Under the pieces are notes generated by a model, which saw nothing but the letters and a program-made list of their open reading frames with translations, was not told the DNA's origin and ran no database searches. A stretch of DNA of 64,000 bases from a virus: IMG/VR virus record IMGVR_UViG_3300034683_000041, positions 32,001 through 96,000 of that record; one strand, given 5' to 3'. This document shows positions 1,577 to 38,711 of this stretch, one piece after another (position 1 is the first letter of the stretch; each line of letters begins with the position of its first letter). Made by a program: the position numbers and the translations under genes.

Positions 1577-1903
1577 GTGTCACTTATACTTAAAGTTCCT
1601 GATGATGTTTCAATAGAAAATACTAAACCATTTCCACACATTCGTCCGATCGTGGATCTGAAAGATGCTCAAATTTTGATTGATCTGAGGAACTTACCTA
1701 CAACTTCTTTGCCTCCTAAGATATATGTTCGTCCAGATATCTCATCTCCAAAAGGCTTCAAAATTTATGGTCTGAAGGAGCCATCACAAACCAAAGAAAC
1801 ATACATATTAGATATACCTCATTCTCAGGTTTTCTCGATAAAAGATTGGATAGATAAACTCTACGCTATAGAACACAAAGATTTGAAAGAAATCGAATTC
1901 TAA
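1577..1903 (+). CDS. Hypothetical protein
   Basis: TAAGGAG RBS before GTG; hairpins at 1513-1540 and 1950-1981 flank it. Confidence 0.7.
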   Translation: MSLILKVPDDVSIENTKPFPHIRPIVDLKDAQILIDLRNLPTTSLPPKIYVRPDISSPKGFKIYGLKEPSQTKETYILDIPHSQVFSIKDWIDKLYAIEHKDLKEIEF

Positions 1904-2080
1904 ACTACATGATGTTTTGAACATGTTTTACTTTTAGTATGGATATCTGTAGACTACTGCCCTATTTGGGGCAGTAGTCTATACCTCTTAATTATGTCAT
2001 TCATCTTTTTTTACGGTCATATTACTTCTTTGAATCAGGATCTACGATCCTACAACAAAACTTATTCAAGGAGAATAATC

Positions 2081-2227
2081 ATGACTATTCGTAATTTTAT
2101 CCAGATCGTTGCCATCGTTGTCGTTACTGGAGCAATGGTTATCGGAAGCTATGTCTACGGACAGAGTGCTTCTTCGGACAACAACTTGTCGATCCGTGGC
2201 ACAATTATCTCCCAGCAGCATCGCTAA
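2081..2227 (+). CDS. Small single-pass membrane or secreted protein (48 aa)
   Basis: AAGGAG RBS before ATG 2081; hydrophobic FIQIVAIVVVTGAMVIGSYVYG; CATATTAC promoter variant at 2018-2025. Confidence 0.6.
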   Translation: MTIRNFIQIVAIVVVTGAMVIGSYVYGQSASSDNNLSIRGTIISQQHR

Positions 2228-2264
2228 ATGAGATACATATGAATTCAACACGACATTTCAAAAG

Positions 2265-2299
2265 AGAGTAGAGATCCAACACAAATGGATCTCTACTCT
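2265..2299. terminator. Bidirectional terminator between convergent genes
   Basis: agagtagagatcca/tggatctctactct stem with an A-run before and a T-run after. Confidence 0.7.
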
Positions 2300-2310
2300 T
2301 TATTTTTTTA

Positions 2311-3024
2311 TCACATAAGTACAGCACGTTCGCCTTTAACGTAGACATCGTCATGCCTGGCCATTTCCAATGCAGAAACATACATGTCGATAGACGATTG
2401 ATTTTTATTCAAGTACACAGAGGTAACTATAGAAAAATAACCATACGTCCTATATCCGTCGGAATATCCCGAAACATATCCGGGACAAGTGTTATGTCCT
2501 CCAGCACCACCAAACTCACAATCAAATAATGTCTGGCCGTTTAGAGTTCCACGATATCCTGCAATGTAATTTCTTTTTGATCCAAATATATAGAACAACC
2601 TTACTTGGTATATTCCAGATTCAGGAACTCCTTGTGGTAAACACATTCTGGTAAGTTGTGGAGGACACCATCGTCCTACCTGACCATCTCTCCAAAGACC
2701 CCAAGTCGACCATCCTGTAGGAGTACAACACGTCTGAAGGTTACACTCTTGTGTAGTTGCTGGTTTAGCAACTTCACTACAAAATCGATCTGATTTGTAT
2801 ATACCATCAGATCTAAGACACTGTACTGTTCGTTCTTGGATACCTCCTCCACATGGTGCAGAACATTCTCCCCAAGTACCAACTTCCCAAGAGTATTTCC
2901 ATACAGGTTTCCATCCTTGTTCTGTCTTAATATGGATATTCTTAACTTCTGTCCAAGTATCATCCTGATTCTTGACAAAAATATTAAGTCTTGACCAATG
3001 TTCAGTTTGTTTTATACTTAACAT
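2311..3024 (-). CDS. Thrombospondin type-1 (TSP1, ADAMTS-like) domain protein; probable virion fibre tip or adhesin
   Basis: WEVGTWGECSAPCGGGIQERTVQC...FC...KPATTQECNLQTC carries the WxxxxWxxCSxxCGGG-R-C pattern with six Cys. N-terminal K-x(3-5)-W repeats resemble phage fibre adaptors. GGAG RBS. Confidence 0.8.
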   Translation of the reverse strand: MLSIKQTEHWSRLNIFVKNQDDTWTEVKNIHIKTEQGWKPVWKYSWEVGTWGECSAPCGGGIQERTVQCLRSDGIYKSDRFCSEVAKPATTQECNLQTCCTPTGWSTWGLWRDGQVGRWCPPQLTRMCLPQGVPESGIYQVRLFYIFGSKRNYIAGYRGTLNGQTLFDCEFGGAGGHNTCPGYVSGYSDGYRTYGYFSIVTSVYLNKNQSSIDMYVSALEMARHDDVYVKGERAVLM

Positions 3025-3044
3025 AGGTTTTCTCCAGGAATGAT

Positions 3045-3082
3045 GGGATATAGTACTAGTCTTACGACTAGTACTATATCCC
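3045..3082. terminator. Long perfect stem-loop
   Basis: gggatatagtactagt-cttacg-actagtactatatccc immediately after the stop of 3089..4951. Confidence 0.7.
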
Positions 3083-3088
3083 CCTTAT

Positions 3089-4951
3089 TTACTGAATAGA
3101 ACGTAAGACATTGTACAGTTTGACACTGTCGTACAAAAGCGCATCACCTAACACATCCATACGAATAGCACTGAGTAAAGAATATCTGGTACGTCTGATC
3201 TTTGCAGACTCAAACCCATTACAATTATCCTCAATATGTCCTTGACAAATAGTTTGTACTATCTTGTTAGGAGCTATGTCATTTCCGTTACGGATGGTAC
3301 TTTCGAATGAATTTTTCTCAGTCAGATTTAAGATAAGTTTTACAAATCGCTCAAAATCATTAAACGAATATCCTAAATCTTTCATGGATTGTTCTTTTTC
3401 GAGTCCTACATCATCGATAGTAAAAACCTGGGAGATAGTAGGTTTGTTACAATACTCATGGCTTCGCATAGAAAATCCGGACGATTCCATCGAGGACAAT
3501 AGCGATGTAAGTTCCCCAAGAGGATCGTTTTTATCTACTGGAACAAGTAGATTGGCCAGAGAATACTGATGTATTTTTGTTGCGTTTTGGTATACGTGGA
3601 ATCTACCATTCATAATTCTAAAATTGGGGAATTTGATCTTGACTTCTGCAGCATTTTTTACGTGCTGGTTAGTTCGGAAGATCCGATCTAACTCCCGTTC
3701 CAGAAGAACATTTATTGTTTTTTGTGTATGATAGATATTTTGCATCCTATTGTACATAGGTTCTTGTACTTGCATGTACTTACGAATGCATTGTCTATTC
3801 TTCAAATAGATCTCTCCAGAAATAGCATGCAAGATAGACGCTTCGTATGGATCACCTTTAGCTATAGAGGCTTGTCTCATCAAAAGCTGTTCTTGTCCAT
3901 CTTCCACCAATGCTTCCAAATCATCCACCAGATCATCAGAAGTTTCAATAAAGTTATCGTCCGTGATGTTGATCTTTTCAGAATCTCGGGGGATGATTGT
4001 ATCGTCAACAATGATCCGTTCCGGATCGTCTACAGAAAAGAGGTTGAACGATGCAGGAACAAAGCTTTCTCCAGAAGGAGAGATAGCTGCTTGTTTCATA
4101 GCTTGAAGAAGAGTTATGATCGCTCTACAATCTCGCATACGTAGACTGAAATTCAAAGCTATACCGAGATACATGATAGTGTAGAGTCGGCTATATCTAG
4201 CATTCATTGCAATGGTACGAGATACTTCATCTTGAGTATTTGGAAATAAGGTTTTAACTACAACCGCATACATTGCAGGTGTAAATTTGAGATTATTAAG
4301 ATACACTCTCCAGATACTCGGTCCATTTAGTTGTACATATTTTTCAGCTAACATCAAACTTTTCATTTGATTGTAGCCTAATTTTTTTACACTTTCTGTT
4401 TGTGACTCTTGTATACTAGACGGAGAAAAATTACACGCACGTCCAGCATTTTCGATATCCCGGATATCACGTACTTGATCCCACCCTGCAGAAATGAAAG
4501 ACTGTACAAGGTCATTTAACTTAGGATCGAGCATGTTTGATTTTTGTACTGGGGCTTTAATGGAATTCCAATACGGAGATCCTGAAAAGAACTTATCTAC
4601 TTTTGTGTATACAGGAACCATATTGATCAGTCCATTAGCATGAGGAACGTTATACACCTCAATTTCGGAATACGCTTTATTATCAATTTTAAGAGAACTT
4701 ACTTCTTCTAAAATGCGCTGCAGTTTATTATTTTTAACTTTCAGTGCTTCGATAGAAGTTTCAGTACCACTGAATCGGTTTAACGTATTTTTGATCTTAG
4801 TAAGTATCCCTTTAGGGATATCTTCCTCAGAATTGATATTCTCCAAACCTATCAGATCTTCTTTCATGAGCTCTAGTTGCTCTAAACAATAGTCAAGATC
4901 TTCGTGTGCTCTACGGACTAAATACGAATCTTCTCTGTTGAGATTAAACAT
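3089..4951 (-). CDS. Putative internal head (ejection) protein with two tandem paralogous units
   Basis: Acidic leader with GLE/SIE sites, internal SGE followed by a second acidic leader, and two S-x-K-x-LGY motifs shared with the 15-19 kb paralogues. Confidence 0.5.
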   Translation of the reverse strand: MFNLNREDSYLVRRAHEDLDYCLEQLELMKEDLIGLENINSEEDIPKGILTKIKNTLNRFSGTETSIEALKVKNNKLQRILEEVSSLKIDNKAYSEIEVYNVPHANGLINMVPVYTKVDKFFSGSPYWNSIKAPVQKSNMLDPKLNDLVQSFISAGWDQVRDIRDIENAGRACNFSPSSIQESQTESVKKLGYNQMKSLMLAEKYVQLNGPSIWRVYLNNLKFTPAMYAVVVKTLFPNTQDEVSRTIAMNARYSRLYTIMYLGIALNFSLRMRDCRAIITLLQAMKQAAISPSGESFVPASFNLFSVDDPERIIVDDTIIPRDSEKINITDDNFIETSDDLVDDLEALVEDGQEQLLMRQASIAKGDPYEASILHAISGEIYLKNRQCIRKYMQVQEPMYNRMQNIYHTQKTINVLLERELDRIFRTNQHVKNAAEVKIKFPNFRIMNGRFHVYQNATKIHQYSLANLLVPVDKNDPLGELTSLLSSMESSGFSMRSHEYCNKPTISQVFTIDDVGLEKEQSMKDLGYSFNDFERFVKLILNLTEKNSFESTIRNGNDIAPNKIVQTICQGHIEDNCNGFESAKIRRTRYSLLSAIRMDVLGDALLYDSVKLYNVLRSIQ

Positions 4952-4960
4952 GGGTACTCC

Positions 4961-5845
4961 TTAATCGTTTACAATTTGCGCTTCTGCAGCTTTACAAAGT
5001 TTCAATACATCTACCATGATATCATACGCTATCTGGTGTGCAGCTTTGATGAAATGAGTAGCCCACCAAAACCTTGCAAGACGTATTTCAAGGATCTCTC
5101 TATTCACAGAACTAGATTCTCCTTGCTCTTGAAGTTGAGCGTCGTATCTGGATAAAGATTCACCATAGGCAACAAACGATTTTTCGATCTTTGTCGTAGT
5201 TCTGCTATCTGCATATTGTGCAAGAGTTTTAATTTTTTCTACGACTTGGACTAGTTTGTCAAGAGAATATCCGTGATGTGATACAGATACTGTCGATCTA
5301 TCTTGATCGTACAATGCGGATACAGATTTAGTCAAGCTAAACTTAGACAGATCGAACCCAATCTTGTACAATACACTGTATGCTCGTTTAAACTCAGGAG
5401 TTCTCCAATCCGAGGAAGTTACTGGAGAATCACAAATTTGAGATATGTTAGACAATAACACATGCAATTGTTTAACTGCATCTATCCTCAATAACAATTT
5501 TTCATAACTTACGATCTTGAGCTTCTTTTCATAGAACTTTTCTTGATCGATACGATTTAAGTTATTCTTCAGGCGTTTCTCCCAGCGCTGTTGTATACTC
5601 TGACTACGGGAAAACGTTTTCTCAGCACCATTACGAAGGATACGTAACATCCGCATCACTAATGCACTGATTTTTCTAGCCATTTTAGCTAGACTTGAAC
5701 CAACTGATTTAGCTAAATCAGTATAATTTTCATCCGATCTAAAGTTGGGGTTCAACAGCATTTGGAGTTCTTCTTGAAGTTCAAGATAAGAAGTTTCGAA
5801 TACTTCTTCGTCAGTAGCAAAAGACACTGCTTTTAACTTCAACAT
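4961..5845 (-). CDS. Putative internal head protein paralogue
   Basis: Acidic N-terminus, SDE site, basic amphipathic helix, TVSVSHHGY motif; GGAG RBS. Confidence 0.5.
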   Translation of the reverse strand: MLKLKAVSFATDEEVFETSYLELQEELQMLLNPNFRSDENYTDLAKSVGSSLAKMARKISALVMRMLRILRNGAEKTFSRSQSIQQRWEKRLKNNLNRIDQEKFYEKKLKIVSYEKLLLRIDAVKQLHVLLSNISQICDSPVTSSDWRTPEFKRAYSVLYKIGFDLSKFSLTKSVSALYDQDRSTVSVSHHGYSLDKLVQVVEKIKTLAQYADSRTTTKIEKSFVAYGESLSRYDAQLQEQGESSSVNREILEIRLARFWWATHFIKAAHQIAYDIMVDVLKLCKAAEAQIVND

Positions 5846-5969
5846 GAATCTGCTCCTATTCTAAAATTACAGTGGTATACATAGGATGGCATGAAATAAA
5901 ATTTTCACTATAATCTTATGCTTCTTTCTTCCAAGGAGATATTACAAATTTATATTCGGAGATGTAACA

Positions 5970-6149: not shown

Positions 6150-7687
6150 TGCATATTCTGCGTGACTCCATAAGTGAATACATTACTCTTACAAGAAACA
6201 ATTCTCTTGGACACATGTCCAAAACTCTTGCTGAGTACATAGAGGCAAGGACTCCTGAAGGATTATCCGATGCAGAACTTCAGGCACATGTTGTTGATAT
6301 GATTGACGAGTATTTTAAAAACGATGAGCATAACTCACAATACAACGTAGTACGAACTATAGGGCAACTGACTGCAGACGTATACAACAAATCCAATCTG
6401 AAGTTAACCGCCGAAGTTACTCCTGTAGTGGAGCAACTGTGTTCCAAAATTGTGGATCGAGCTTCTGAGAATTATGCTCGTCGAGTTGGTATATACCAAC
6501 TTAACGACAAGAAACGCCTTGCTCCTAAAAACTACACGATCTTCTCTGTTGATGAGGATGTCCTCAGGAATATCCAAGGACGACTTTCCGGATTACTTAA
6601 CAAATATTCTATCAACATAGGGTCAGAATTTCATCTCACTAACCTTTGGAGTACTGCAACAAAAGTACTCCAAAAGGAATATGCTCATCATGGTCCCATG
6701 ACCATGAAATACCTTGTCGATCAGGTTGAAGAGTTGTTCTCTGAAGAAGAACGCAACGACCCTATGCTTAACCGAATTTTAAACTTCCTTTCCACCAACA
6801 CAACTTGTGCGTACAACTTTAAGGATCTGTTCCTTGAAGGTTCTTCCGGTGTCGGAATGAGCATGAAATTTATCCAGGACGTAACAGCGTTCAAGTCTGC
6901 TCTGACTAAAGTCTACGAAAAGTTTGTACCTTCTAGTATGGACATCTTAGAAGAGACGCAGGAACTTCTTGATGCTAAGTTCAGTGTACTGGAAGATCTT
7001 CATGTATTAGCTGACACTGGGCTGGTACTTGCTAAAGACCAATATTCTAAAACTTTAGTTATTGGTCTGGACATGCTCAATGGCGATATGCTTGAAGAGT
7101 ATCAAAAGAATGGTGGTAAGTTGACTGACATCAGTGCACACTTACGATTGTACTACAATAAAGATGAAGAAGACGTTCTGTATCCTTACGCTACTCATCA
7201 GGAGTTTCCCAAGACGGGATTGAGTTACACTTTCATGTTGAAGTCTTTACCTCAGACAAGAAGTGCTATCGAATCTCTGATGGATAAAGTTAATCTTGAA
7301 GATACCGAACTGAAAACTAAGTCTTTAGTACATGCTCTTGAATTTGAACTCAGAACTTATCTTGAGAATAATCTGACTCAAGGTAATATTCCTGAGGATG
7401 TTCCTGAAATGCACGCTAAAGACATTTGTTACAATAAGTTAACCACACACGTAAACAAGTTCAAGTATAACCCGGAAATGTGCATAGAAGATGTGGTATA
7501 CTCCTATGTGTTAGATACTTGGTACAATACTTCTCTTGTTTCGACTATCCACAAAACTTTAGGTAGTCAGTTGGTAACTTCTCTTTCAGGAAAAGAGAAT
7601 CTTGAATCCTCAGATATTGCAACTCTGCATTGTAAAACTCAAGCGGAAATAGTTTCATCGTTTTTACTCGATACTATCGTCGAATAA
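6149..7687 (+). CDS. Hypothetical helical protein (512 aa), possibly virion-associated
   Basis: Long ORF with AGGAG RBS and a terminator at 7705-7742; no recognisable motif. Confidence 0.6.
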   Translation: MHILRDSISEYITLTRNNSLGHMSKTLAEYIEARTPEGLSDAELQAHVVDMIDEYFKNDEHNSQYNVVRTIGQLTADVYNKSNLKLTAEVTPVVEQLCSKIVDRASENYARRVGIYQLNDKKRLAPKNYTIFSVDEDVLRNIQGRLSGLLNKYSINIGSEFHLTNLWSTATKVLQKEYAHHGPMTMKYLVDQVEELFSEEERNDPMLNRILNFLSTNTTCAYNFKDLFLEGSSGVGMSMKFIQDVTAFKSALTKVYEKFVPSSMDILEETQELLDAKFSVLEDLHVLADTGLVLAKDQYSKTLVIGLDMLNGDMLEEYQKNGGKLTDISAHLRLYYNKDEEDVLYPYATHQEFPKTGLSYTFMLKSLPQTRSAIESLMDKVNLEDTELKTKSLVHALEFELRTYLENNLTQGNIPEDVPEMHAKDICYNKLTTHVNKFKYNPEMCIEDVVYSYVLDTWYNTSLVSTIHKTLGSQLVTSLSGKENLESSDIATLHCKTQAEIVSSFLLDTIVE

Positions 7688-23736: not shown

Positions 23737-25659
23737 CTAGATGTTAGCAGCATTTGGTATGATGCACATCCTCAAAGTTCCAATAGGAACACACACCTCA
23801 CGCAATCTTCTACAAAGCTCCGTTGTCATGTGTGCAGTCTGTGATGGAGGTCCAGATATCCGATCAGGAGTTATGTGCCGGATACATTCTTCAAGTTGTG
23901 TTTTGTCTTGAGGATTGTTGATCTTCCTAAGATCCAGTACGTCAAAATACATAGTTTTATCGTATACTTGTTCGTATGTGAGATGTGAGTCTAATGCAAG
24001 CATCCATTTGTCAGGAAGTTCCGAACTAGACAGATCTCCTCGAAGTACCGACAAAAACGTTTCCTTAAAAGACTTTGATAAAATATCAAGTATAGTTTTT
24101 TGAAGGTCATGTTCTCCATAGAACGTCTCTTCAGCATCGCAAGTATACGTGTCTACAAGATTCTTGGTAATCCAATACATCTTGTACATCGCATTTACAA
24201 CAATACCTGCATCGATCGCTTGTATAGCGGAACCTATGCAGTCTTCAGCAAGAGCTTTGCCAGCTATCACGTCATGTGAAGTTCCACCAATATCAAGATA
24301 CATTTTATTCACATACAGAAGATCACTAAGTCCGGTTTCTAATTCGGTGATCTCGGCAATGTTGGCGGTATGCTCGTTACGACACAACTCTAAGATCTCA
24401 TCTATCTTTTGATATGAAGCTTTGAACTGTGGATATTTATCCATGTTCTTTAATGCAGGATGAGAGTTATCCCCTTCAACAACGTCTGGGATGATGTTAG
24501 AGATACGGATGTCTGTTCTATCCACATGCACGGATGCACCTTCAATTATGCATTCTCTGATATCGGGAAGCATGTCGTCATATCCGAACGACTTAACGTT
24601 GGCTTTTCCGTTGATACTGAGAGCTTTCCAAGGAAGACCGTATCGAGTAGACTCTGTAGGATATACCCCAACGATCACAACGGCTTTAGTCAGTTCCATC
24701 CATTTCCGGAAAAATTCGCGTACTGTAACTCCTATACCTTGACTTGTTGCAGGAACCATCACCACATGAGGTTTGATAGTATCTTCCGTTCCTATCTCGG
24801 TAAAGTATTCGATGATCTTGGTAGTTTCGTCAGAAACGTCCATGATGTTTTTCGGAAGAACAAGAAGATTAACATCATCAGCTTCATATACTCTACCGCC
24901 TTCTCGATTCAGATGATGAATACTACAAGAATCTATAGCAATATTCCTGAACCGATATTCGCAATTTTCAACTCCAACAGAAAACGTTTTTTCTGTTTCG
25001 ACATTTCTGGTGCGATAGTCGATACTGGAAGAAGATCCAGCTAAAGGCATGTTCAAGAATATTTCTTCTATAGCTTTAGCAAGTTCAATATTTCCACCAG
25101 AGGCAGTCAGAGACTGGATATATGCCATCTTACCTATTGCTTGCTGTCGACTGATGTCAAAACGTTTTTCAAGATCTTCGACTTTGAGTACGATATCCTT
25201 TGAAGAATTTAAGACTTGGTCAAACATCTTCGCAAAAGCCAAGTTCATTTCGTATATGGAATAATTTTCAAATTTATCAGACGCTTCCAGCATGTTCCGT
25301 ATGAAATTACAAGCCATGAGCATGGAAGTGGTCGTACCATCTTTACAAGACTGATCAACTCGACGTCCAATATAAGCTATCGCACTTTTGAGGTGTTCCT
25401 GTGCAGGGTTAATGCACTCTATAGCTCCAAGGACTTTAGATCCATCTCGGATAAATGCCCGTATCTGCAAAGTAGGATCGGCACTATTACCAGACATACT
25501 TGCAGAATAGATCAGAGTATTTCTAGCAAACGGACCACATATGGTGGTAAGGTGCTGAGTAAAACTCTCAAGGGTCTGGGTAAGAATGTGTTTAAGGTCT
25601 TCACCCTGTATGGTGTTCGTAACGTTTTGAAAAGATTTTAACTTCAAAGGTTCAGCCAT
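23737..25659 (-). CDS. Phage GroEL-like chaperonin
   Basis: TICGPFARNTLI (GP motif), IRDGSKVL, KDGTTTSMLMA (P-loop) and AEDCIGSAIQAIDAGIV (D398 region). Confidence 0.85.
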   Translation of the reverse strand: MAEPLKLKSFQNVTNTIQGEDLKHILTQTLESFTQHLTTICGPFARNTLIYSASMSGNSADPTLQIRAFIRDGSKVLGAIECINPAQEHLKSAIAYIGRRVDQSCKDGTTTSMLMACNFIRNMLEASDKFENYSIYEMNLAFAKMFDQVLNSSKDIVLKVEDLEKRFDISRQQAIGKMAYIQSLTASGGNIELAKAIEEIFLNMPLAGSSSSIDYRTRNVETEKTFSVGVENCEYRFRNIAIDSCSIHHLNREGGRVYEADDVNLLVLPKNIMDVSDETTKIIEYFTEIGTEDTIKPHVVMVPATSQGIGVTVREFFRKWMELTKAVVIVGVYPTESTRYGLPWKALSINGKANVKSFGYDDMLPDIRECIIEGASVHVDRTDIRISNIIPDVVEGDNSHPALKNMDKYPQFKASYQKIDEILELCRNEHTANIAEITELETGLSDLLYVNKMYLDIGGTSHDVIAGKALAEDCIGSAIQAIDAGIVVNAMYKMYWITKNLVDTYTCDAEETFYGEHDLQKTILDILSKSFKETFLSVLRGDLSSSELPDKWMLALDSHLTYEQVYDKTMYFDVLDLRKINNPQDKTQLEECIRHITPDRISGPPSQTAHMTTELCRRLREVCVPIGTLRMCIIPNAANI

Positions 25660-37365: not shown

Positions 37366-38073
37366 TTACACTGCGCTAAGTGCAGCGGTCTGAGCGGCAT
37401 TGTATCCCTGGAAATGGATAGCATCGGTGATACGGATCGCATCAGTTGCAAGAGTTGCAACAGTGTCACGTTCTTCGATCGTCATCTTAACGAAGCTAGT
37501 ACCATCTGCAATGACATCCAGGGTGTCCTCTGTTTTCGAGAACTTGTCAGCAAGCTGAGCATCCAGGTCAAGGGATTCCTTCTCACCGATCTTTTCCCAT
37601 TCGCCAGCGCCTTCTGCACCTGCAGCGTTCCACACGTACTGAGCACTGCTAGCAGTAACGGTGGGATCAGCAGAAGCATCCAGAACAAAGATCAGACCGT
37701 CACGCTGTTCATCGACCAGCGCATCACGGGCTGTGATGTCAGCAACGAACTTAACAGCACCGCTAACAACACCTGCAGGAAGAAGATCCAGGGGGATCTT
37801 ACCTCCGCCATCCAGCTGAAGAAGGCCGTTGGCGGCGTTGGCATTGTCCAGCATAGCACGCTGAGCTGTCGTCAGCGTAGCTTCGATCAGATTGCCCAGA
37901 TCGTTATACCGAGTAACTCCGTCACCAATTTTGATAAAACCGGTATCGGAATCCATAGCCATGAACCCTTCCATAAGAATCGGGTTATGACTTGCCCACG
38001 CTGCACCAGTATCTACACCGATGGATACTGCTGCCGGGAAACTCTTAACATCAGGAGCGTAATTAAAAGCCAT
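37366..38073 (-). CDS. Fibre or decoration protein with an Mtd-N / hyaluronidase-N-like domain
   Basis: WASHNPILMEG...DSDTGFIKIGDGVTRYNDL, LQLDGGGKIP and VADITARDAL...VLDASAD; GAGAGG RBS before ATG 38073. Confidence 0.7.
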   Translation of the reverse strand: MAFNYAPDVKSFPAAVSIGVDTGAAWASHNPILMEGFMAMDSDTGFIKIGDGVTRYNDLGNLIEATLTTAQRAMLDNANAANGLLQLDGGGKIPLDLLPAGVVSGAVKFVADITARDALVDEQRDGLIFVLDASADPTVTASSAQYVWNAAGAEGAGEWEKIGEKESLDLDAQLADKFSKTEDTLDVIADGTSFVKMTIEERDTVATLATDAIRITDAIHFQGYNAAQTAALSAV

Positions 38074-38240
38074 GATAAACCTCTCAAAATAGATTGTTTT
38101 TCTTGACACCATGTCAAGCAATGTTACACGCGTGTAGTCCCCACAATTATCTTCACAATCTAGAGAAGAAAATAGTTGAGATTCCACATAGAATATTACA
38201 TATATTAAGTGTACCTAAATGTGGTACACTTAATATATCT

Positions 38241-38711
38241 TCAAACAACAAATGTATTGAGTTCTGTGTCCGGAGTATTTTTGAGATCGTCTTCTCTAGA
38301 TCGTTGCCAACCAAATGCCAGTTGCAGATGTTCGTTGAGTGCCAGAAATACTTTATCAAACAAAGGTTTATCCATTGTAACCCATACACCATCGCTGGCT
38401 TTCCAGTCTTGGATCACCGTTTCAGGATTGTCAGCGAATACCTTCGTTAGTAATGTGTAGGATGCACGAGCACTCTGATCACTGTCCCACAACTTACCGG
38501 CATACAGGAATCCACTATCCCGAAGTTCATTCTTCTGAATAGCTATCTCATTTAAGATAGACTCTCTGGTTCTTAACCAGGTACCTTCCGTCGTGAGTAT
38601 ATAGTTTTCTCCAGGACAATCTTCTTGTACATGAATGTATCCTTCTGGAGCAAACTTCTGTTTAGCACAGTACACCACGTTAGAAGTTCCCACTTGCGCA
38701 AAGATAAGCAT
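38241..38711 (-). CDS. DUF4376-like tail fibre accessory protein
   Basis: GFLYAGKLWDSDQSA...WKASDGVWVTM pattern, directly after the fibre gene. Confidence 0.7.
   Translation of the reverse strand: MLIFAQVGTSNVVYCAKQKFAPEGYIHVQEDCPGENYILTTEGTWLRTRESILNEIAIQKNELRDSGFLYAGKLWDSDQSARASYTLLTKVFADNPETVIQDWKASDGVWVTMDKPLFDKVFLALNEHLQLAFGWQRSREDDLKNTPDTELNTFVV

Follow-up and report, generated by a model that had tools for sequence, protein, structure and literature searches.

The stretch of viral DNA analysed here (64,000 nucleotides; hereafter the window) encodes on its minus strand, at positions 2311 to 3024, a small protein (label P0001) in which a thrombospondin type-1 repeat (TSR) of the ADAMTS type stands between an N-terminal module of phage type and a C-terminal domain of its own. 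On balance we favour the reading that P0001 is a modular adhesin displayed on the virion and composed of a dock, a disulfide-stapled TSR spacer and a variable tip. P0001 is one of a family of large-phage proteins that retains its front half and exchanges its end. The window comprises bases 32001–96000 of a 118,395-bp IMG/VR record (IMGVR_UViG_3300034683_000041; CheckV completeness 43%) and, judging by its gene content, is a fragment of an uncultured phiKZ-like jumbo phage. The P0001 gene has a GGAG at 3032–3035, 7 nt ahead of its ATG, and divides into the following parts:

2311..3024, minus strand: open reading frame (ORF) of P0001, 237 amino acids (aa) plus stop
2896..3024, minus strand: N-terminal module of three K/W beta-hairpins, aa 1–43, proposed docking piece (AlphaFold2, family conservation, hhalign)
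2728..2895, minus strand: TSR, ADAMTS type, aa 44–99 (Pfam and fold match)
2641..2727, minus strand: Trp/Cys-rich linker with WSTWGLW, aa 100–128 (sequence; predicted local distance difference test, pLDDT, 26–32)
2314..2640, minus strand: unique C-terminal domain, aa 129–237, Gly/Tyr/Cys-rich and mostly beta, proposed binding tip
2774..3012, minus strand: core of about 239 bp, codons 5–84, common to the genes of P0001 and of the P0002 type (described below)

A canonical thrombospondin repeat

By all the sequence and fold tests that we ran, the middle domain of P0001 is a member of the TSR family. A preliminary description of this DNA, made from the sequence alone, had read a complete six-cysteine TSR with a Trp ladder and an R-x-V-x-C motif at 2728–2895; this is exactly aa 44–99, and the reading holds in each of its parts. 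The Pfam profile TSP1_ADAMTS (PF19030) aligns over its full length (positions 1–55 of 55) with aa 46–99 at E 7.3e-16 and 58.6 bits (cut-off 23.8), and TSP_1 (PF00090) also lies above its gathering score (E 4e-5; 24.2 bits vs 21.6), while a Pfam control matched none of 14 reference genomes. The six cysteines are C54, C58, C69, C82, C94 and C99, the tryptophans are W42, W46 and W51, and the R-x-V-x-C motif reads R65-T-V-Q-C69, so that at the level of sequence the Trp and Arg residues of the CWR layers are present. Across a nine-protein family alignment all six cysteines, W46, W51, R65 and R71 are invariant.

The closest solved structure by sequence is the THSD7A TSR didomain (PDB 8oxr; E 2.3e-5), with 31–33% identity over 58–60 residues. 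An AlphaFold2 model of aa 1–100, made with a seven-row alignment, has a mean pLDDT of 88.8 (89–96 over aa 41–90) and a predicted template modelling score of 0.68, and its predicted fold is elongated and three-stranded, like solved TSRs. The top Foldseek match of this model was again 8oxr (E 3.3e-3), and in a VIA scan of PDB representatives, which is independent of Foldseek, the best match was 8oxr_A, with Z 6.2 and a root-mean-square deviation of 2.8 Å over 58 residues. TSR structures made up 17 of the 19 VIA rows listed, and 21 chains reached Z ≥ 2 among 48,161 PDB representatives. These Z values are modest because the domain has only 55 residues; the list of matches is nonetheless specific. 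P0001 also has the highest Trp fraction of the 60 ORFs of the window (10 of 237 residues) and the second-highest Cys fraction (11 of 237, or 4.6%, against a median of 1.0%), a composition that fits an extracellular, disulfide-stabilised module.

The hairpin module

The N-terminus of P0001 carries three K...W repeats (K5..W10, K18..W24 and K33..W38), in which K5, K18, W24, K33 and W38 are invariant in four homologues. AlphaFold2 folds them into strand pairs at 3–6/9–12, 17–20/23–26 and 31–34/37–40 (pLDDT 83–90). Judged by eye, there is no signal peptide in this N-terminus, as had been said before, its first 40 residues being predicted as three beta-hairpins.

Sequence comparison identifies the module as one of phages. 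In hhalign, a module profile aligned with the N-terminus of gp63 of the Burkholderia jumbo phage FLC8 (probability 96.5%, E 9.8e-10, 43 columns) and with gp073 of the Vibrio phage JSF10 (probability 74%, E 2.7e-5). Both gp073 and gp074 of JSF10 start with the hairpin module, and they are the final two genes of an annotated tail-fibre cluster. The earlier likening of these repeats to phage fibre adaptors is supported in so far as the module is one of phages. K/W repeats occur as well in two glycine-rich phage-type proteins that carry no TSR (L032, L034), and weak PHROG matches of the module agree with a phage origin: one is to a minor tail protein family, and three are to the N-termini of unannotated families. 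The VIA scan listed no PDB fold match for the module, and its structural rows in BFVD were weak (all E ≥ 0.037), the first being a phage glycine-rich protein.

Linker and tip

A second WxxWxxW motif, noted in the preliminary description, is present as GWSTWGLW at aa 104–111. The linker around it aligns with the first strand of the second TSR in multi-TSR relatives and is possibly, on that alignment, the remnant of such a strand; Pfam finds no second TSR, nor any other family at E ≤ 1, in aa 100–237. The sole homologue of the tip is P0025, an identical fragment of 111 aa, and the tip has no match in Pfam, PHROG, NCBIfam or the PDB sequences. Beta-lactamase inhibitory protein, its best PDB sequence row, was set aside as not significant (E 0.28), and the fold rows of the tip model, among them phage tailspike 8oq1 (Z 3.1) and T5 pb4 (Z 3.0), were too weak (Z ≤ 3.9) to be used.

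A family with a constant front and changing tips

A word-indexed search returned a single relative of P0001, the 217-aa protein P0002. HMMER against 1.84 billion representative proteins gave 3162 matches at E ≤ 1e-3; nearly all of the best 150 are long multi-TSR proteins that align only at aa ~43–107, and among these 150 the N-terminus too was matched by P0002, P0084 and P0115. A profile of the N-terminal 47 residues picked out five proteins among 39 candidates, every one of them with PF19030. The same profile located family genes in three viral contigs (149, 241 and 302 kb) and two metagenome contigs (L030, L031), and whole-protein alignment located others in two contigs of metagenome-assembled genomes (MAGs) labelled Bilophila and Mailhella (L037, L049). 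With P0001 itself as query, no related locus was found in the viral contigs.

The family has a common layout of three K/W hairpins (shortened in some genes of record G001), one to three TSRs, and divergent C-termini. Three phage records hold several members each: G001 has seven TSR matches in about five genes, G002 five in about three genes and G003 six in about four genes, as against one match in the record of the window. The parts that follow the first TSR in 17 proteins fall into 11 BLASTP groups at E ≤ 0.01, some of which may be remote relatives of one another; eight groups are singletons, and the tips of P0001 and P0002 are both among these. An architecture of adaptor, TSR and swapped C-termini, which the preliminary description had anticipated, therefore recurs in P0002, in L003 as compared with L004, and in others.

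Several details of these records deserve mention. A further K/W ORF (L004 10639–10821) is cut by the end of the 302-kb record, whose first bases contain the start of a TSR (G003:C1:1–72); G001, too, opens with a TSR start. Circular permutation of the 302-kb record is probable, and one more family gene would then span the junction. In G002 and G003 the product of the three-TSR gene ends in a conserved Cys-rich motif, VCPW..CC, and two radical-SAM genes lie 8–10 kb upstream of it (G003:C1:117481–119859 and 126918–127900; G002:C1:168590–170962 and 179039–180000). Radical-SAM genes are present in all four phage records; that of the window (G000) has a single one, at 6210–6521, outside the window and about 28 kb from P0001.

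A shared DNA core

The two closest members agree in a sharply bounded manner. Identity between P0001 and P0002 is 1/4 at residues 1–4, 51/51 at residues 5–55, 23/29 at residues 56–84 and 8/15 at residues 85–99, and from residue 100 onward the two are unrelated. Sequencing runs gave a view of the DNA behind this pattern. The region 1900–5900 of the window was found in subsurface metagenome runs of one study, two of which may be the source of the record, and in wastewater runs of three other studies, with word shares of 0.56, 0.54 and 0.30 in wastewater runs and 0.25 in one further run. Among the runs listed for this region there was no RNA run. Some contigs from these four runs cover the P0001-type tip. 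Other contigs, in runs X5, X6 and X7, match only 2774–3012 and then differ, and the consensus of their loose ends is the same in each run. Read by hand on the minus strand, one loose end encodes residues 84–94 of P0002 (EISKPASVQEC), while the opposite one holds the P0002 start, MIQL, preceded by sequence unlike that upstream of P0001 in the window. Because of these loose ends we conclude that a core of about 239 bp is nearly identical in two genes that differ in 5′ flank and in tip, the flanks of the P0002-type gene being known from loose ends of 30 letters. Both core-bearing genes occur in three independent wastewater studies. P0002 as query found no related locus in the metagenome contigs.

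We raise tentatively the possibility that phiKZ-like jumbo phages have a tip-exchange system for which the core of K/W hairpins and TSR is the recombination handle. There would be several paralogues per genome, near-identical cores of about 240 bp would move unrelated tips between loci and between co-infecting phages, and the particle would display a changeable set of disulfide-stapled TSR stalks. If true, this would be a form of host-recognition diversification not described for phages, achieved through a module thought of as animal.

Neighbourhoods of family genes

Twelve family loci were scanned for their neighbours. A PHROG tail-fibre or tail-protein match lies within about 3 kb of the family gene in seven of them and adjoins it directly in L003, L004, L037 and L049; these counts are not fully independent, as L003 and L004 are close relatives, and likewise L002 and L031. 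Five of the 12 loci have an unannotated neighbour of the phrog_1604/2618 type, a protein of 314–471 aa (L002 9016–9963, L003 10547–11488, L030 489–1454, L049 1507–2919, L010 259–1485), which may be a conserved partner of the K/W-TSR gene, perhaps a chaperone. No phrog_1604 match was found in the 118-kb record of the window, which is 43% complete; the control matched nowhere. Between the phrog_1604-type gene of L003 and a terminase gene lies a frame of 55 aa that consists of the K/W module alone (L003 11634–11774; G002:C1:37699–37839) and may be what remains of a lost family gene.

Genomic setting of P0001

The phiKZ-like character of the window is marked by split RNA polymerase (RNAP) beta-type subunits and by phiKZ-type internal head proteins (phiKZ_IP). 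It also encodes a tail tube protein, Phage_TTP_15 (PF23971), a divergent family B polymerase (PolB), and a gp87 homologue of 962 aa, 25% identical to the phiKZ protein. The closest relatives within reach are the IMG/VR records G002 (241 kb, 90% complete) and G003 (302 kb, 100% complete), to which the gp87 homologue is 41% identical; the polymerase is 44% identical to that of G003. Both records are syntenic with the window over RNAP-beta, two minus-strand genes, a 528-aa gene and the gp87 homologue, and neither has a TSR gene at the syntenic spot. In the window, then, the minus-strand cluster (294 aa, 620 aa, TSR) ends with one additional gene, that of P0001. The other members of the cluster and the hairpins beside P0001 are:

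3089..5845, minus strand: two upstream cluster genes, 620 aa and 294 aa, of no known family
2265..2299: hairpin with a 14-bp stem after the P0001 stop, between convergent genes (−25.2 kcal/mol, z −7.1)
3045..3082: hairpin with a 17-bp stem between the 620-aa gene and P0001 (−30.2 kcal/mol, z −6.4)

In G002 and G003 the positions of the 620-aa and 294-aa genes are occupied by genes of 524 and 342 aa, and the 620-aa neighbour as query found no related locus in the viral contigs.

The hairpin at 2265..2299 is a probable bidirectional terminator. We considered a special role for the two hairpins that flank P0001 and rejected it: the window holds 30 distinct perfect hairpins with stems of 11–17 bp (781–62355), 27 of them intergenic and of like kind and three within ORFs. 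Such hairpins stand in almost every intergenic gap, many between convergent or tandem genes, and resemble a genome-wide terminator code. A recent foreign origin of the P0001 gene was likewise rejected, its base composition being native (GC content 0.399, against a mean of 0.390 and a standard deviation of 0.029 for genes of the window; GC content at third codon positions 0.261, against 0.344 and 0.051).

Three other features of the window may be recorded here. Within 899–1300 lies the gene of an 87-aa helix-turn-helix (HTH) protein that matches phrog_1381, ‘plasmid antitoxin with HTH domain’ (E 8.8e-13), and after it, at 1214–1300, comes a tRNA-Leu(TAA), of which the first 46 nt show 95.7% identity to a tRNA of EBPR podovirus 3. 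A 640-aa protein (23737–25659) weakly matches, over its N-terminal 170 residues only, a PHROG of GroEL-type phage chaperonins (E 1.1e-7).

TSRs in prokaryotes and in other phages

The preliminary description called the repeat of P0001 ‘eukaryote-type’. That wording was too strong, since canonical TSRs are found in numerous assemblies of bacteria and archaea. Among such assemblies, taken as one genome per prokaryotic species, we confirmed 123 TSR stretches and kept 78 loci. Most belong to Bdellovibrionota, Myxococcota, Patescibacteria and DPANN archaea, and the repeats are 40–59% identical to that of P0001. The proteins that we inspected carry, for example, a MYXO-CTERM sorting tag, a prepilin leader or a Bdellovibrio MIDAS adhesin domain, and every bacterial one inspected is either exported or located at the surface. 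Four loci from bins of gut Bacilli, Clostridium and ‘Phocaeicola’ (L088, L096, L106, L108) encode pilin-TSR fusions of 550–700 aa, in which a prepilin-type N-terminus (TIGR02532 on L088) is joined to two to four TSR-like repeats and the end is rich in Cys. The best-scoring match of the scan in a named cultured isolate, most other loci being MAG bins, is in a member of the Brucellaceae, Falsochrobactrum ovis DSM 26720: the gene next after that of an 884-aa prophage tail fibre codes for a TSR protein of 216 aa whose N-terminus resembles a signal peptide (L036 2803–3450). Because bacteria and archaea hold so many canonical TSRs, the presence of one in a virus is weakened as a sign of a eukaryotic host or of animal gene capture.

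No TSR was found by tblastn in 50,697 GenBank phage records with P0001 at E ≤ 1e-3 or with a three-TSR member at E ≤ 1e-2, an absence that is suggestive and not proof, as tblastn with a 55-residue domain works near its detection limit. A third family member used as query matched 10 GenBank phage records, through the hairpin module only. Our full-text literature search found no paper on TSRs in phages and our literature search none on TSRs in bacterial genomes; PMC7824862 and PMC9376991 have the term only in their reference lists. At least in part of its text, PMC3417536 treats TSP1 as a transfer from animals to apicomplexans.

Where P0001 may act

For P0001 we infer a place in the virion, a late closing of its disulfides and a role in binding, in the following scheme. 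The protein would be made in the cytoplasm without a signal peptide, and the hairpin module would build it into the particle, in a fibre or the baseplate or, given its neighbours in the window, possibly in the head. Disulfide closure would follow lysis, when the particle has left the cell. The TSR would then act as a short rigid spacer that projects the variable end domain, and the orphan C-terminal domain would bind a structure of the host surface. Paralogues with different tips would widen or shift the range of attachment, and tips would pass from gene to gene or from phage to phage by recombination inside the conserved core.

A number of observations weigh against an adhesin carried by the particle. 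Five of the 12 family loci, that of the window included, have no fibre gene nearby. No recognisable fibre gene adjoins P0001 in the window and its 620-aa and 294-aa cluster mates match nothing, while the region as a whole corresponds to the head and inner-body genes gp80–gp97 of phiKZ. The N-terminal module has weak PHROG matches, the best being to the minor tail protein family (E 5.5e-5), and the tip has a low-confidence predicted fold (pLDDT 24–58) that is no known binding fold. The signal-peptide-like N-terminus of the Falsochrobactrum prophage protein means that phage-borne TSR proteins can also be exported to the host surface. A six-cysteine extracellular fold would have to be made in a reducing cytoplasm. 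The only fibre-like genes recognised in the window lie at 37366–38711, 34 kb from P0001, and encode a 273-aa protein with PHROG matches to tail-fibre and tailspike N-termini and a 156-aa ‘tail protein’.

Given the head-gene block in which P0001 lies, one might place it on the capsid instead, as a decoration comparable to Hoc: the hairpins would bind the head, and TSR and tip would project and adhere weakly to surfaces, to biofilm matrix or to polymers like mucus. It points the same way that in L003 the upstream fibre-repeat protein also matches phrog_3018, annotated as a head decoration protein (E 5.5e-19), and animal TSRs bind glycosaminoglycans. The preliminary description had likewise proposed binding of sulfated glycans or mucus, for which we find no support: in this family the TSR is the constant part and specificity would be expected in the variable tip, and the DNA comes from subsurface and wastewater runs, not from animal samples. 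Moreover, the most informative neighbourhoods are tail-fibre clusters, and neither Pfam (E ≤ 10) nor the PHROGs (E ≤ 1) returned a Hoc or Ig-like family. We consider capsid decoration unlikely.

P0001 might also be absent from the particle and act as a free protein, released at lysis or made as an add-on, that binds host surfaces or debris, for example by masking receptors and so saving progeny from being lost on dead cells, or by excluding competitors. Its character as an addition that closes a cluster, bounded by hairpins and missing from this place in G002 and G003, is what such a protein would lead one to expect; so is a Cys-rich fold suited to the outside of the cell, and the Falsochrobactrum prophage protein looks exported rather than structural. 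Against this, P0001 itself has no signal peptide that we could see, its N-terminal module is common to small proteins that end tail-fibre clusters, fibre genes directly adjoin the family gene in several relatives, and hairpins like those around P0001 are ordinary here, with 27 between genes in 64 kb. A free protein therefore seems to us an improbable explanation.

We give very little credence to a role within the host cell during infection, be it in host takeover, in anti-defence or in the biology of the phage nucleus, with the TSR fold as a cytoplasmic interaction module: many of the small, variable jumbo-phage genes serve early takeover, P0001 has no signal peptide, and the HTH antitoxin-like gene and the tRNA are nearby, but six disulfide cysteines invariant across the family make little sense in a reducing compartment, the bacterial TSR proteins inspected are all exported or on the surface, and the family tends toward structural gene clusters.

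If P0001 is indeed a virion adhesin, a textbook animal adhesion module would be carried on bacteriophage particles as a constant stalk for interchangeable tips. The K/W-TSR core would then serve as a search handle for the host-recognition proteins of uncultured phiKZ-like phages, and the biochemical question would arise of how a six-cysteine extracellular fold matures on a particle assembled in the cytoplasm.

Comparison with known systems

With the TSRs of ADAMTS proteins and THSD7A (PF19030, 8oxr), P0001 shares the full-length profile, the six cysteines, the Trp/Arg ladder and, in prediction, the elongated three-stranded fold. It differs from them in being phage-encoded and in having a single repeat, placed between a hairpin module and an orphan domain, with no signal peptide; the C-mannosylation and O-fucosylation of eukaryotic TSRs cannot be assumed for it. 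The MIDAS-type adhesins of Bdellovibrionota, the MYXO-CTERM proteins of Myxococcota and the type IV pilin fusions use the same canonical TSR as a stalk module. Unlike P0001, however, the bacterial and archaeal proteins are exported (by signal peptide, prepilin leader or sorting tag), usually have 3–10 tandem TSRs and lack the K/W module. T4 Hoc and Ig-like decoration proteins resemble what we propose for P0001 in that a small adhesion module familiar from eukaryotes is borne on the virion, but the Hoc fold is different and there is no homology.

The separate tail-fibre tip adhesin of T-even phages, gp38 of the T2/S16 type, attaches through a conserved N-terminal part and recognises the receptor with a variable end. 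The P0001 family likewise combines a conserved N-terminal part with an exchangeable C-terminal part in a small protein, and relatives of P0001 are encoded directly after a fibre gene; a position in or beside a tail-fibre cluster is found at seven of the 12 family loci, but not in the window, where P0001 does not stand beside a fibre gene. The two show no relation in PHROGs or Pfam, and gp38 is not known to have a TSR spacer. JSF10 gp073 and gp074 and FLC8 gp63, all annotated as hypothetical, share with P0001 the homologous triple hairpin, small size and diverse C-termini, and differ from it in having no TSR. By analogy, then, the T-even separate tip adhesins and these uncharacterised K/W proteins of JSF10 and FLC8 would be the closest functional counterparts of P0001.

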